Assembly (NCBI GenBank): GCA_038087875.1
Contig: CM075988.1
Span: 22,942,001-23,006,000 of the forward strand
Direction of reading: 5' to 3'
Length of the DNA: 64,000 bases
From: Malacoraja senta
Lineage: Eukaryota
Below the pieces are notes generated by a model. The model searched no databases. It was not told the origin of the DNA and saw nothing but the letters and a program-made list of their open reading frames with translations. Shown here one piece after another: positions 2,969 through 55,327 of the stretch. The translations under genes were made by a program, and so were the position numbers. How positions within the stretch are numbered: the stretch's first letter is position 1; the number at the start of each line of letters is the position of its first letter.

Positions 2969-3276
2969 CCACCCAATCGCGGTCAACACCAAGAAAATTG
3001 AAGAAAGGGCGAGGAGAGATGCTCTTTGCGGAGACCCTACGAGAAATATACGAGCTGCTGTTATTGATGAACTGTTTCTCCACAGGGTGGGGGTGGGGGA
3101 GTTTTGGGTTGAGACCCTTCTTCAGACATTATGCCTTGTAGAACTTTATTCTAATTGAAAATTACTATTAAACAATGCGTGTTTGATCTAAACTCTGTAT
3201 TGTCTTTTCCATATTTCATCAATTCAAAATTAATTTTCATTAAAAATGTTACTAATGATGGTTCAGCTTCTACTGC

Positions 3277-3329
3277 GGGTGGGAGATTGCATCCTTCATG
3301 TGGTCTACCCTGTTTCAACTAATGCAATC
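3277..3329 (+). ncRNA. Minimal HDV/CPEB3-like ribozyme fold (this copy probably degenerate)
   Basis: P1 GGGTGG 3277-3282 / CTACCC(T) 3305-3311; P2 GATTGCA 3285-3291 / TGCAATC 3323-3329 (7 bp perfect); P3 TCC/GGT; L3 TTCATGT (CPEB3 L3 is UUCACGU); J4/2 CTAA with putative catalytic C3319. Confidence 0.7.
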
Positions 3330-3410
3330 AACCCGACGTCCACAAACAAGATCAAATAGAACAAGTTGAACTACAACTTTAGGCTGTGTACGCCATACAC
3401 AAGAAGAAGA
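3278..3410 (+). mobile_element. 133-bp non-autonomous retroelement with (AAG)n tail, probably Vingi/Ingi-dependent
   Basis: Exact 10-bp TSD ttctactgcg at 3268..3277 and 3411..3420; 3' end catacacaagaagaaga resembles cattcgcaagaagaag of the Vingi-like fragments in this window. Confidence 0.8.
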
Positions 3411-3501
3411 TTCTACTGCGATCTAGGAGCAATTTCCATTTTAGTTCACGCCTGATAAAATGTTTTTGAAGGTGGATTTGGTTTCCGATCTCCCTAGTTT
3501 G

Positions 3502-3811
3502 GGTGGCTCGGTGGTGTAGCGGTAGAGTTGCTGCCTTACTGCACTGGCAGCACCAGAGACTGTGTTCGATCCCGAGCTGTCTGCACGGAGTTTGCATGTT
3601 CGCCCCGTGACCGCATGGGTTTTCTCTGAGATCTTCGGTTTCCTGCCCCCACTCCAAAATACAGGTTTGCAGGTTAATTGGCTTGGGAGAAGTGTAAATT
3701 GGCCCTAGTGTGTGTAGGATGGTGTTAATGTGCGGGGATCGCTGGTCGTAGTGGCCTGGGTGGGCCGAAGGGCCTGTTTCTGCGCTGTACCTCTAATCTA
3801 AACTAAACTAA
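3502..3811 (+). mobile_element. HE1/V-SINE
   Basis: tRNA-like head, V-domain core, gggccgaagggcctgtttc tail. Confidence 0.88.
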
Positions 3812-50748: not shown

Positions 50749-51441
50749 AAGTTTGTGGGGTTTGTCCCCGAATTCGAAGTGTTCTTGTTTTGTGATTTGA
50801 AATAATGTTATAACTTTCTCTGACAGTAATTTATTTAACTGAAATTTCAGTAGTAGTATTTTATTATGTTTATCCATAGTTGGGTCTTTAGCATTATCTA
50901 TATCTAACTGTTTTATTTGATCTTCTAAGTGTCTTTGTTCATTCTTATTCTTTTTATTTTGATAAGCTTGAAATGAAATAATGACTCCTCTTATAAATGC
51001 TTTGAAGGATTCCCATAATAACGTGGGGGATATCTCTGGTGTATCATTTAACTCAAAAAATAGATCCATCTGTTTTTTTAGATAGATACTCCCTTGAGGG
51101 TCTTTTAAAATTTGTGAGTTAAACCTCCAGAACGGTTTATTCATAGACATTCCTTCTAGTTTTAGAACAAAAGTTAACGGAGAATGATCTGAGATCGCAT
51201 TAATATGATATTTAGGATTCAGAGATTGCGAAATTAATTTTGTATCCACAAGAAAATAGTCTATCCGTGAATATGTTTTATGCACCATTGAATAAAACGA
51301 GTAATCCCTTCCCGTCGGGTTTGCAATCCTCCATACATCTGTTATATTTGTGTTTTCCATATATGTGTGTAAGAGTTCACTGGTTTTAGATTTCGTCTGA
51401 CCTTTTTGTTTTTGCATCGATTTATCTGAATAAGGATCTAT
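50749..51441 (-). pseudogene. Inverted L1 ORF2 apurinic-type endonuclease C-terminal half and linker
   Basis: DVWR..P..YSFYS..YSRIDY..ISDHSP..WRFN..LWESFKA..RG..EFGDKPHKL. Confidence 0.9.
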
Positions 51442-54400
51442 AGCACGACAACTTAAAAAACGGGAAAAAGAGAATGCAATATTAAAGATTAAATCAGATA
51501 GAGGGGAAGTATTAACACTACCCAAGGATATTAATAAAAGATTTGCTCAATTTTACCAGAATCTATACACATCTAAAACGTCAATAGACAATAATAAAAT
51601 CTCAGAATTTTTAGATAATTGTAATCTACCACAATTAGAACGCAGGGAACAAGAGGAACTGGGAGCACAAATTACTTCTAAGGAGATAGAAGACACAATA
51701 AAAACACTAAAAAATGGAAAAACACCAGGACCAGACGGATTCAGTAATGAATTTTATAAATCTTTTTATGATATAGTTACTCCACGATTACAAAAAATGT
51801 ATACATATGCTTATAAAGAGCAAAACCTACCTGAAACACTAGCGGAATCAACGATCATATTAATACTTAAAAAAGATAAAAATATAGAAGAACCAGGATC
51901 ATATAGAGCTATTGCTTTGTTAAATACGGATCAGAAAATAATAGCAAAAACATTAGCCAATAGATTAAGCAAGTATGTTAGTAGACTAATACATGAGGAT
52001 CAAACAGGATTTATACCTAAGAGACACTCATTTAATAATTTGAGACGTTTGCTTAACATAATGCATTCACATAAATCTGATGACCAAGAGTTAGCTATCA
52101 TCTCACTGGACGCAGAAAAAGCGTTTGATCAAGTAGAATGGGACTATATGATCAAAGTATTGCAAAAATTCCAATTGGGAGAAAACTTTATTGCATGGAT
52201 AAAACTACTATATAACAAACCTACGGCTAGAATACTAACTAATAATATATTATCTTCAAAATTCGAATTATCTAGGGGCAACAGACAAGGATGTTCACTA
52301 TCACCGCTGTTATTTGCTTTGGTAATTGAACCCCTTGCTGAAAAAATAAGAACACACTCGAATATTCACGGTTATAACACAAAATATTCAAACAACAAAC
52401 TATCCCTATATGCTGATGATGTACTACTGTACATCACAAAACCACAAATTAGTATACCAAATATATTAAACTTAATTGAGGACTTTGGATCCTTTTCAGG
52501 ATATAGAATAAATTGGAACAAAAGTGAAATTATGTCGATTAAACCAAAAGACTCAACACATCTCAGGAAATTCCCTTTTAAAATAGCTATGGAAAAATTC
52601 AAATATTTAGGAATTGAGATTACTAGAAATTACCATGATATGTTTAAAGCTAATTATAATCCCCTACTTAAGAAATTAAATAATCTGATTAAATTTTGGA
52701 AAACACTTCCGATGTCCTTAATAGGTAGGATAAATGCTATAAAAATGATTTTCTTGCCACAAATCCTTTACCTATTTCAATCAATACCTATATATCTCCC
52801 AAAAAAGTTTTTCAAAAAACTGGACTCAGACATTACAAATTTTATATGGGATTACAAATCCCACAGAATACAAAGAACACACCTTAACAAACGAAAAGAG
52901 TTGGGGGGTCTAGCGCTCCCTAACTTTATGTATTATAACTGGGCAGTAAATATTAAAAATATGATTCACCTGCTGGACAATTCTGCCCAGCAGGTGGACT
53001 GGATTATAATGGAAAAAGGGGATTGCTCCCCGAATAATATAGGAGCGATTATTCTCTCTCCAATAAATTTGAATAATAAAAATTATAATAAAAATCCAAT
53101 TATATATAGCACTATTAGAACATGGAAGCAAATAAAACAGAATCTAAAATTAAGAAACCTATCTCTCTTAATACCAATAGTCAATAACCCATCGTTTAAA
53201 CCTTCAATCATAGATAAAGCATTTATACAATGGGAAAGAATGGGAATTAAAACGCTCGAAGATCTGTATGAATTAGAAAAATTACTATCATTCCAACAAC
53301 TACAACTGAAATATAATTTGAAAAATAATCAATATTTTAAATATCTACAAATCTGTGACTATTTGAAAACACACACAAAAGATTATTATAATATGCCTTC
53401 CGACTTACTAGATGAAGCAATGAAGACAAAGGCGGAATCAGTTAATTTAATATCATACTTATATAATATCATCTTAAATATAGAAATACCCACAACAGAT
53501 GGAATTAGAAGAGATTGGGAACAAGATCTAGGTATAAAAATTTCAAAAGAGAGTTGGGATAATCATTTATTACAGGTGCATAAATGCTCGATCAACGTAC
53601 GACATACGCTTATCCAATTTAAAACATTACATAGATTATATTATTCAAAAACCAAACTAAATAAAATCTTTCCTAACGTCTCACCAATCTGTGATAAATG
53701 TATATGTCAAGAAGCTACCATAGCACATTCTTTTGTTTTTTGTACAAAAATCCAAAAATTCTGGTTTGAAATATTTGATATTTTTTCAAAATTAATCAAA
53801 ATAAAACTGGTACCAAAACCAGAATGGATTATTTTTGGAATATCGGAAGGTATTCCTGAATTAAACGTGTATCAGAAGAATTTACTCAATTATGGGCTAA
53901 TAATGGGAAAAAAGCTTATACTTAAATTCTGGAAAAATGCGCCCACACCAACAATAAAAATGTGGACATCAAATATGTTGGAAACATTACATCTGGAAGA
54001 GATGAGATTCCTCCTAGTAGGCAAAGTAGATCAATTTCAAAAGACGTGGTCTACGTTTTTGGACCTATTACAAGCATGAGGTGCAATAGTAATTTAGAAA
54101 AACAAATAAATAAATAAAAGGTATCTGGACCTGGTAATGGGAGGTAAAATAAAAACAGACTTGGTTGGTAGTTCCTTCTCTATGAAGTATGGTATAAGAA
54201 GTATAATAGAGCGATTGTTCCTTCTTTCTTTCTCTTTTTTTTTCTAGGGTCTATTTTCTAACTTTACTTCCTTCTCTAACTTCTTTTCTAAGGGGCTTTC
54301 TTTTCCCAACACTCTTTTGCACTTCACAACCTTTGTGCACTTTCTTCACTTTTCTTACTTCTTTCTTTTTCTTTCTTAAAGATTAAAAAAGTGAAGCGGT

Positions 54401-54498
54401 ACAAAAAATGTATTAATATATACGTGTTGTACATTACTGTAATCTACCGTACTTCTAAAAAATAAAAAAAATTAAAAAAAAATAAATAAATAAAAAAA
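50754..54498 (+). mobile_element. Young 5'-truncated, 5'-inverted L1 (twin-priming structure)
   Basis: Inverted endonuclease segment ~50754..51441 (-), forward ORF2 51443..54079, 3'UTR and polyA; 18-bp TSD aaattaaaaaccgaagtt at 50736..50753 and 54499..54516. Confidence 0.95.
51443..54079 (+). CDS. L1 ORF2 reverse transcriptase + C-terminal zinc knuckle (N-terminally truncated, no stops)
   Basis: KTPGPDGF, SLDAEKAFD, RQGCSLSPLLF, YADD, CDKC...HSFVFC motifs; frame open from 51443. Confidence 0.92.
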   Translation, partial: ARQLKKREKENAILKIKSDRGEVLTLPKDINKRFAQFYQNLYTSKTSIDNNKISEFLDNCNLPQLERREQEELGAQITSKEIEDTIKTLKNGKTPGPDGFSNEFYKSFYDIVTPRLQKMYTYAYKEQNLPETLAESTIILILKKDKNIEEPGSYRAIALLNTDQKIIAKTLANRLSKYVSRLIHEDQTGFIPKRHSFNNLRRLLNIMHSHKSDDQELAIISLDAEKAFDQVEWDYMIKVLQKFQLGENFIAWIKLLYNKPTARILTNNILSSKFELSRGNRQGCSLSPLLFALVIEPLAEKIRTHSNIHGYNTKYSNNKLSLYADDVLLYITKPQISIPNILNLIEDFGSFSGYRINWNKSEIMSIKPKDSTHLRKFPFKIAMEKFKYLGIEITRNYHDMFKANYNPLLKKLNNLIKFWKTLPMSLIGRINAIKMIFLPQILYLFQSIPIYLPKKFFKKLDSDITNFIWDYKSHRIQRTHLNKRKELGGLALPNFMYYNWAVNIKNMIHLLDNSAQQVDWIIMEKGDCSPNNIGAIILSPINLNNKNYNKNPIIYSTIRTWKQIKQNLKLRNLSLLIPIVNNPSFKPSIIDKAFIQWERMGIKTLEDLYELEKLLSFQQLQLKYNLKNNQYFKYLQICDYLKTHTKDYYNMPSDLLDEAMKTKAESVNLISYLYNIILNIEIPTTDGIRRDWEQDLGIKISKESWDNHLLQVHKCSINVRHTLIQFKTLHRLYYSKTKLNKIFPNVSPICDKCICQEATIAHSFVFCTKIQKFWFEIFDIFSKLIKIKLVPKPEWIIFGISEGIPELNVYQKNLLNYGLIMGKKLILKFWKNAPTPTIKMWTSNMLETLHLEEMRFLLVGKVDQFQKTWSTFLDLLQA

Positions 54499-55100
54499 AA
54501 ATTAAAAACCGAAGTTGCTCACTAACCCTGGCACCTTCCGTGGAAGGAGAAACTGTTAATGTTTCAGCTCAATCAGCTTTCGTCAGAGGTGGGGCTGTTC
54601 CCAAACCCGTGCTGTGATGCATCTTAATAAAATGCTTTTTATAGCGCATCTGTAGAAGTCGGTGAGAGTTCTTGGGGACATTTCAAACTTCCTAAGCCTT
54701 CTAAGGTGTTGGCGTGCTTTTATGGCCATTGCTTCAATGTGGCTAATCCAGGACATCTAGCTGGTGATATTTATTCCTCAGAACTTGAAGCTTTCAACAA
54801 TCTATACTTTGGCACCCTCAATGTATATCAGAGTGTGTGCACTACTTCGCTTCCGGAAGTCAATCACAATATCCTTTGTCTTGCAGAAGAAGGGTCTTGA
54901 CCCGAAATGTCACCTATTCCTTCACTACATAGATGCTGCCTCACCCGCTGAGTTTCTCCAGCATTTTTGTCTACCTTTAAAGGGAGTGTTATCTTGGCAC
55001 TATGTTACGAGGTTCTCAATCTCCTTCTTGTACTGAAATGTTGTGAGGACCAAATAATGTTTGATCTTGCAGAGGATATTGTGGATAGAAGGTTGTGAAT

Positions 55101-55327
55101 CTTCTTCTTCTTGCGAATGAAACATAAACAAACCAAAGGAATAGTTAGATCTCAAGCCGGGTGTTGAGCAGCCAGGTTGTTATCTCTGTTGGCGTCAATG
55201 TCTGCCAGGCCCTGACAGAGCTCCATTTGGTGGGTGGTAGAGCGGGCACCCAGAGATGACATGGTTGGCTGTCTGTTGTTCTGCTCCGCATTCACAGGCT
55301 GGGCTCTGGCGGAGCCCCCATCTCCGG
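55101..55327 (-). mobile_element. Vingi/Ingi-like LINE 3' fragment with CCHC knuckle
   Basis: Minus strand RWGLRQSPACECGAEQQTANHVISGCPLYHPPNG...TWLLNTRLEI* and (GAA)n tail. Confidence 0.75.

Follow-up and report, generated by a model that had tools for sequence, protein, structure and literature searches.

The stretch of DNA studied here, called the window in the following, is a 64,000-nt segment of the Malacoraja senta genome (GenBank assembly GCA_038087875.1, contig CM075988.1; C12:22942001-23006000), and near its left end it holds a short insert, at 3278-3410 on the forward strand, between two copies of a direct repeat. Most probably this insert represents a copy, dead and lacking a little of its sequence, of a bipartite non-autonomous retroelement of about 135 bp, of the kind without long terminal repeats (non-LTR), whose head is a minimal ribozyme of the hepatitis delta virus (HDV)-like class and of the CPEB3/Vingi type. 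The element behaves like a short interspersed element (SINE) and has no RNA polymerase III (Pol III) head, and its 5' end coincides with the first base of the HDV/CPEB3-type fold.

The insert and its parts

The insert is bounded by an exact 10-bp direct repeat, TTCTACTGCG, which forms the left target-site duplication (TSD) at 3268-3277 and the right one at 3411-3420; it was found both by reading the sequence and by a repeat finder, which extends the flanking repeat to 13 nt at 92% identity. Between the two TSDs stand 133 bp ending in CAAGAAGAAGA, and the first-pass annotation, which was made from the letters alone and had described a 133-bp insert with an exact 10-bp TSD and an (AAG)n end, is borne out in all of this. 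Compared with dispersed copies in the same assembly, which are 93-95% identical to it and have individual flanks, the insert comprises family positions 3-135 of about 135 bp, that is, it is truncated by 1-2 nt at the 5' end.

The first 54 nt of the family form the head, which is laid out as a 7-bp P1 with a G1-U pair, a 2-nt J1/2, a 7-bp P2, a 3-bp P3, the loop L3 TTCACGT, a single G for P1.1, a 6-nt loop in the place of P4, and a J4/2 of the form C-N-A-A. On the window copy, the 5' strand of P1 is found at 3278-3282, corresponding to positions 3-7 of the family GGGGTGG with G1 and G2 missing, and its partner at 3305-3311 reads CTACCCT, against CCACCCT in the family and CCGCCCT in the major subfamily; the T at 3306 still gives a G-U pair. 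P2 is made of GATTGCA (3285-3291) and TGCAATC (3323-3329), with seven pairs and 100% of the cells paired in the table of 11 aligned copies. The strands of P3 lie at 3292-3294, where the family has ACC and the window copy TCC, and at 3302-3304 (GGT); the pair with 3304 is A-U in 10 of the 11 copies, the window copy with its T-T mismatch being the exception. L3 occupies 3295-3301 (TTCATGT here), and after P1 come the G at 3312, whose proposed partner in P1.1 is C22 of L3 (the two bases are C and G in 11/11 copies, and the pairing itself is putative), the 6-nt stand-in for P4 at 3313-3318 (family TTTCGA, window TTTCAA) and J4/2 CTAA at 3319-3322, opened by the candidate catalytic cytosine C3319. 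The first-pass annotation had named TTCATGT, the G, an almost absent P4 and CTAA in this order and had picked the same cytosine. Where it went wrong is P2: the perfect 7-bp helix of ATTGCAT with ATGCAAT that it reported exists in the window copy alone, the family P2 lies one base to the left, and a single A-to-T change at 3292 accounts for both the false P2 and the broken P3 of this copy.

Downstream of the head, the non-coding body extends over 3330-3399 and contains the two strands of a predicted 8-bp stem closing the 3' domain (family positions 62-69 with 110-117, equal to window 3337-3344 with 3385-3392), which comes from minimum free energy (MFE) prediction alone and is without statistical support (z-score -0.09). 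The 3' end, at 3400-3410, is a C(AAG)n tail, which in the major subfamily reads CATACGC(AAG)n and differs in length among copies. No tRNA gene, small-RNA family of Rfam or tRNA-like head was found in the element, as expected from the earlier description of a SINE-like family without a Pol III head.

Regarding the state of the window copy, the first 1-2 G are absent, P3 has the T-T mismatch, and C has changed to T at position 24 in L3 and at position 31 in P1. The missing G1 and the P3 mismatch had been suspected from this copy alone and are both seen against the 11-copy alignment, and the insert does begin within 1-2 nt of the predicted cut, since the family starts with GGGGTGG and this copy is without the first 1-2 G. 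The copy is not matched by the strict HDV-type descriptor described below, and the whole window gives no match at the Rfam gathering thresholds. Ribozyme activity of this copy is almost certainly lost, as is usual once an element has been inserted.

Copies, ends and subfamilies

Copies were searched for in the whole 1.94-Gb assembly. A first look gave 3,635 candidates; all 40 that were scored match at 93-100% identity, 38 of them over the full 1-133, and they comprise 20 near-identical copies on two unplaced contigs, the window copy itself and 19 dispersed copies. The 20 near-identical matches carry the flanks as well: the segment at about 3000-3700 of the window and beyond recurs at 97.7-100% identity with a spacing of about 9.5 kb on contigs C3286 and C1649, and the window locus exists there as either a tandem macro-repeat or a segmental duplication. 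Ten of the 19 dispersed copies (L021-L030), each with flanks of its own and 93-95% identical to the window copy, were taken for alignment and make, together with the latter, the 11 copies used throughout.

Exact-pattern counting gives a consistent size for the family. The 32-nt core of the head occurs 1,211 times in the assembly, the first 23 nt 2,564 times (the pattern being preceded by a three-quarters sampling letter), and the 3' end of the larger subfamily 3,357 times, while each reversed control gives 0; therefore the family has several thousand copies. This larger subfamily, of T/G type, was revealed by a 3' anchor test that had been meant to find longer elements and returned the same element instead.

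Both ends of the element are sharply defined. On the 5' side, GG stands directly before GGTGGG in 83 of 100 among the matches listed (out of 2,564), the ten bases further upstream vary, and loose contig ends start at L023 1498/1499, which is G1. Contigs from the runs of four organisms contain the element with both boundaries the same and break at this very place. On the 3' side, the terminus CATACGC(AAG)n is found in 89 of 100 among the matches listed (out of 3,357). Exact TSDs of 9-11 bp flank 7 of the 11 copies, the window copy included, and the tail is variable in length. Thus dispersed copies, individual TSDs, a variable microsatellite tail, no open reading frame (ORF) and no Pol III head are found together, as in a non-LTR retroelement.

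Two side observations concern the 5' flank. About 11 of 100 among the matches listed share the upstream sequence CA[AC]TGGGACA before G1, some of them lying 1-1.5 kb apart on C1, which is probably one element copy amplified inside a larger repeat. In addition, T stands immediately 5' of G1 in 40 of the 83 element copies listed and in 10 of 16 H1b heads, which are grouped with the related family H1 (see below); this could reflect a preference for certain targets, or an A added without a template to the complementary DNA at the RNA 5' terminus.

Fold of the head

In HDV-type ribozymes, G1 stands at the cleavage site and a G-U wobble closes P1, the catalytic cytosine opens J4/2 and is followed by N-A-A, and P4 is dispensable. 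The family consensus shows the corresponding elements: P1 is GGGGTGG with CCACCCT and the G1-U wobble, P2 is GATTGCA with TGCAATC, P3 is ACC with GGT, and L3 is TTCACGT, so that what is broken in the window copy is restored in the family. The strands follow the order of the nested double pseudoknot, P1-P2-P3-L3-P3'-P1'-P1.1-P4-J4/2-P2'. The wobble (G1-U36) is present in 9 of the 11 aligned copies and missing in the window copy; CTAA is invariant in 11/11, and across the contig runs its second base alone varies, N being T, G or A across copies. Of the 198 pair cells in the alignment, 98% hold standard pairs, and sliding the partners lowers this share to 21-44%. Only three kinds of head position vary at 10% or more, namely position 32 (A or G, both of which pair with the opposite U5), position 42 in a loop, and the second base of C-N-A-A; all are compatible with the fold.

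We wrote these features as a strict descriptor, whose 5' part demands G1, a 7-bp P1, a P2 of 6-8 bp, a 3-bp P3 and an L3 of 6-8 nt containing C, and whose 3' part demands a G right after P1 and C-N-A-A right before the 3' strand of P2. Eight of the ten dispersed copies match it, each at the first base of the element, and there is no other match in 720,894 nt of real sequence, a total that covers the window and 91 loci with both strands counted. In 10 Mb generated by a first-order Markov model, it matched 2 times. The near silence of the descriptor in both backgrounds places the fit of the fold far beyond chance.

Comparison with Rfam gives a mixed picture. The consensus-like copy L023 has RF02682, a model of HDV ribozymes, as its best match, with 17.5 bits and E=0.29 over the full model length, starting exactly at G1 and with CTAA aligned to the GCUAAG of the model. 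A check against Rfam models, which the first-pass annotation had proposed, is thus negative for the window copy and sub-threshold for L023, and positive for two families of related heads, H1 and H2, that pass the CPEB3 model. Taken together, the observation made in that annotation is confirmed and its interpretation is supported, because the sequence is not single-copy, the consensus restores the P1 and P3 pairing together with G1, and the 5' ends cluster at the predicted site.

Related heads in the same genome

A generic head pattern that excludes the letters of the element itself was matched at 97 places, compared with 27 for its reversed control, and these places include the two dispersed families H1 and H2. 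The Rfam model CPEB3_ribozyme (RF00622) matches 51 places in the genome, of which 39 exceed the 35-bit cut-off, the best with 64.2 bits; these matches are H2 heads, hit over about 84 nt, and H1 heads, hit over 61-65 nt. In 26/26 of the H2 and H1b heads among the matches listed, conservation sets in with the GGGG that opens P1 and the flank upstream of it varies, and therefore these heads are 5' ends of retroelements.

The H1 head reads GGGGTC-AA-GGAAAGA-GCG-TTCACGT-CGC-GGCCCC-T-G-TTTCCA-CCAA-TCTTTCC. Its segment lengths are the same as in the element head, except that P1 is 1 bp shorter, and it has the same kind of 6-nt stand-in for P4, TTTCCA against TTTCGA. By hand comparison, 18 of 21 unpaired positions are identical between the two heads. 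The helices, in contrast, differ in letters and agree in pairing: in P2, GGAAAGA with TCTTTCC against GATTGCA with TGCAATC, 5 of 7 pairs are changed on both sides and all are still complementary, and in P3 2 of 3 pairs are changed on both sides with pairing kept. Between H2 and H1, a G-C pair of P1 has become A-U and a U-G pair has become U-A. Conserved loops together with covarying helices are as predicted for a shared functional fold, and this cross-family comparison, the strongest evidence in our study, shows, as far as aligned letters can, that the element head is homologous to heads recognized by the CPEB3 model.

Other heads were also noticed. H3 is a decayed third family with about 30 near-identical copies on unplaced contigs. 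A classical Vingi-type head pattern of 35 places (P3 GCG with TGC, 3' strand of P1 GGTCCCT) has 1 match, at C7:20245722-20245796, for which RF00622 gives 39.9 bits. A single internally deleted H1 copy leads directly into ..GGCACAAGAA, and H1 elements are therefore probably (AAG)n-tailed too.

Vingi 5' ends and other known systems

The Vingi clade supplies heads of the same type from other animals. For four Repbase LINEs, Vingi-2_Gav, Vingi-4_Crp, Vingi-1_BF and Vingi-2_SPur, the 5' ends are given in the supplementary material of Kojima 2018 (PMC5786205), as is the Vingi-derived part of SINE2-1_AMi. In the sequences printed there, the 5' ends start with GGGG and have P3 GCG with CGC, L3 TTCACGT, CCCTGT after P1, a real P4 and J4/2 CGAAT (C-N-A-A-T); P2 is TAGCAGAA with TTCTGCTA in the gharial and AGGA with TCCT in the lancelet and the sea urchin, and P1, P2 and P3 are complementary within each printed head (PMC5786205). 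The head of our element is colinear with the printed Vingi-2_Gav over nt 1-38, with L3 identical at 7/7 positions, as it is also to that of the heads passing the CPEB3 model; of 17 pairs compared by hand, 10 have both of their bases replaced, and in the element every pair stays intact. It differs from these printed heads, which have a real P4 (e.g. CAGGTA...TACCTG) and other helix sequences. The link to Vingi drawn in the first-pass annotation is therefore supported in one part, as the same ribozyme type is found at Repbase Vingi 5' ends and CPEB3 hits lie at retroelement 5' ends, and falls short in another, since the Vingi-like LINE (long interspersed element) that it saw in the window is just a 226-bp 3' fragment.

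In the excerpts of the literature on Vingi and ribozymes that we consulted, no statement that Vingi heads are ribozymes was found, and Vingi does not appear there among the LINE clades named as carrying ribozymes. A review reports that structure searches found CPEB3-related sequences in sea urchin, lamprey and lancelet (PMC8256844), therefore the ribozymes themselves are not new, and their assignment to the Vingi clade may be. According to Kojima 2018, Ingi is the sister clade of Vingi, and RTE, Ingi, Vingi and R2 are named as makers of bipartite ORF-less derivatives (PMC5786205).

Several known systems resemble the element. The closest are NARTc, RIME and SIDER, described as short non-autonomous partners of L1Tc/ingi which share a 77-nt head, Pr77, that is an HDV-like ribozyme thought to free the element RNA from co-transcripts (PMC3383444, PMC4035085, PMC8190864). 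Like them, our element is short and ORF-less, a putative derivative of a LINE of apurinic/apyrimidinic endonuclease (APE) type, with an HDV-like ribozyme fold at its extreme 5' end; unlike these trypanosomatid elements, it lives in an animal genome, its 54-nt head is of CPEB3 type with a P4 of 6 nt, and it has an (AAG)n tail and thousands of copies, whereas a promoter role is described for the L1Tc/NARTc head (PMC3383444). The CPEB3 ribozyme (RF00622) has the same L3 and core layout as our head; the mammalian one is single-copy and intronic (PMC8256844), whereas the head described here lies at a retroelement 5' end and under the Rfam cut-offs. R2 derivatives (SIDEs), reported to retain the 5' ribozyme (PMC3414825), and the bipartite RTE and Vingi elements also consist of a 5' end and a 3' end without an ORF (PMC3414825; Kojima 2018), from which our element differs by insertion that is not site-specific and by being much shorter. 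Finally, the minimal HDV-like 'theta' ribozymes of microbiomes and phages likewise have a core double pseudoknot with P4 nearly absent (10.1101/2023.06.13.544163; PMC10879173); these are bacterial or phage sequences, many beside tRNAs, in contrast to our head, which opens a eukaryotic retroelement and is related in sequence to CPEB3-type heads. Relative to these known kinds, what is new is a 54-nt, P4-less head of CPEB3 type on a very short and very abundant animal retroelement.

A candidate helper LINE

The 226-bp fragment mentioned above, at 55100-55325 on the reverse strand of the window, is the 5'-truncated 3' end of a compact LINE, consisting of an ORF end with a CCHC motif, a short 3' untranslated region and the terminus CATTCGC(AAG)n; longer copies elsewhere encode PF14529 and PF00078. 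Its (AAG)n 3' end has 1,388 candidates in the assembly at 96-98% identity with variable 5' truncation, and the family is young and abundant, while its 5'-most known part has 74 candidates. The longest readable copy (L062 and L092 combined) has an endonuclease (PF14529) and a reverse transcriptase (RT, PF00078), is truncated inside the endonuclease and contains frame breaks; the 221 aa after the RT in this copy have no Pfam match, therefore no RNase H was detected there. The full-length LINE, which may belong to the Vingi clade, is estimated at about 3.3 kb, and in Table 2 of Kojima 2018 Vingi-2_Gav has 3,128 bp (PMC5786205).

The terminus CATTCGC(AAG)n stands in 26 of 30 LINE copies, so that CAT-N-CGC(AAG)n is common to the LINE and the element. 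We lean slightly towards this sampled LINE as the helper of the element, given the shared terminus and the youth and abundance of the LINE. A rival of lesser but appreciable probability is that the element is moved by another LINE, for example by elements bearing H1 or H2 heads: apart from the common terminus, the 3' regions of the sampled LINE and the element are unlike, the sampled LINE copies, whose known sequence stops short of the 5' end, yielded no head, and H1 elements, from the deleted copy running into the ..GGCACAAGAA terminus, are probably (AAG)n-tailed as well.

Some candidates were rejected. On C9, a head and the 3' fragment of a LINE that follows it 2.5 kb downstream have no connection with each other. 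The RT ORF at 51434-54079 of the window, considered as a partner, is L1-like with an A-rich tail. The RT ORF of L091 (PF00078 and PF09004), considered as that of the (AAG)n LINE, comes from a different, CR1/L2-like LINE in a composite, 98%-repeated block.

Proposed mechanism and its alternatives

From the above, the life of the element may be pictured as follows. Master copies would be transcribed as part of longer transcripts, and the head would cut just 5' of G1, thereby defining the 5' end of the element RNA. The CAT-A-CGC(AAG)n 3' end would then be used in trans by the RT of the (AAG)n LINE for target-primed reverse transcription, which would produce the target duplications of 9-11 bp. Self-cleavage enters this scheme as a prediction from the fold.

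Several results weigh against a cutting head of this origin. The head reaches none of the gathering thresholds of Rfam, L023 having 17.5 bits where 44 are required, and the window copy has no Rfam match at all in 3200-3480 at E<=10. No P4 helix is found, as 6 nt (TTTCGA) stand between P1.1 and J4/2; so short a P4, together with a P1.1 that has a single clear pair, could mean that activity is low or absent. Covariation within the family is not significant, with one double change, a level reached by 46 of 500 shuffles; little covariation is expected inside the family, because its copies decay neutrally. Between families, strings as printed were compared visually, without a formal statistic. As to descent from a longer element, 39 matches are left when the last 25 nt of the head must be followed by a base foreign to the element, nearly all of them point or indel variants with no recurrent alternative; heads of H type (H1, H2, H3) lie within 3 kb of the LINE 5'-probe places in 0 of 40 among the matches listed, and no element-type head is near three LINE copies on C1 among the matches listed. 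Finding neither a longer element with the same head nor H heads at the LINE 5' probes weighs against a simple origin as a deletion derivative.

Some of these points can also be read in another way, in which the head is a CPEB3/Vingi-type homologue that no longer cuts and is kept as a stable 5' pseudoknot, for protection of the RNA end, for recognition by LINE proteins or as an internal promoter like the Pr77 of L1Tc, with the 5' end set by transcription initiation. The reduced P4 and P1.1 and the low Rfam scores would fit, the head of L1Tc and NARTc is described as both promoter and ribozyme (PMC3383444), and the ribozyme fold of R2 is reviewed as giving cap-like protection from 5' exonucleases (PMC13708176). 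We regard this as unlikely, for the consensus keeps all features of the catalytic core (G1-U, L3 TTCACGT and C-N-A-A with N alone variable), H1 with the same 6-nt stand-in is still over the CPEB3 cut-off of Rfam, the 5' end of the family falls exactly on the predicted point of cleavage, and P4 is dispensable in this ribozyme class. Chance complementarity, in which a common short retroposon would happen to have an HDV-like 5' end, is very improbable, since the hardly varying copies that leave the family alone without significant covariation, and the unremarkable pseudoknot-free MFE (z = -0.09, uninformative because the head is a pseudoknot), are set against the rarity of the descriptor in random and real sequence, the colinearity with H1 and Vingi heads in conserved loops and covarying helices, and the Rfam scores of H1 and H2. 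The one double change within the family is found at L027:1499-1535, where the second P1 pair has gone from G-C to U-G and is still paired, which as a single case could be chance.

If the cutting head that we prefer is indeed active, a 54-nt, P4-less ribozyme of CPEB3 type suffices for a very successful retroelement without a Pol III promoter, and the design of a ribozyme-headed short partner, known from the trypanosomatid L1Tc/ingi elements, extends to an animal genome. If a Vingi-like 5' untranslated region opens with a self-cleaving ribozyme, anything placed upstream would be cut off. With Vingi consensus sequences from crocodilians, lancelet and sea urchin in view, along with at least 3 head families in this genome, of which our element with its several thousand copies is one, we tentatively raise the possibility, to which we give something less than even credence, that CPEB3-type ribozymes are ancestral Vingi-type 5' heads across deuterostomes and that the single-copy ribozyme in the mammalian CPEB3 intron is what remains of such a head after domestication. 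Tying the CPEB3 ribozyme type to Vingi-like heads makes the origin of the mammalian ribozyme testable by phylogeny.

Neighbouring repeats

Directly downstream of the insert, at 3500-3700 on the forward strand, lies a probable SINE, which we take to be tRNA-derived from its likeness to such repeats, and a similar sequence stands beside several of the copies examined. Further along the window, 51434-54505 on the forward strand is a separate LINE, AT-rich and with an A-rich tail, which contains an RT ORF of 881 aa (RVT_1, E=1.3e-41) and is unrelated to the (AAG)n LINE. Outside the window, L091 1000-7745 (C5519) is a composite block, of which many unplaced contigs carry repeats at 92-99% identity; in it lie fragments of the CR1/L2-like LINE (RVT_1 and PF09004, with the ORF ending ..FFPAAVTLLNSAPR), an internal inverted repeat of about 380 bp and, on its 3' side, a truncated copy of the (AAG)n LINE.

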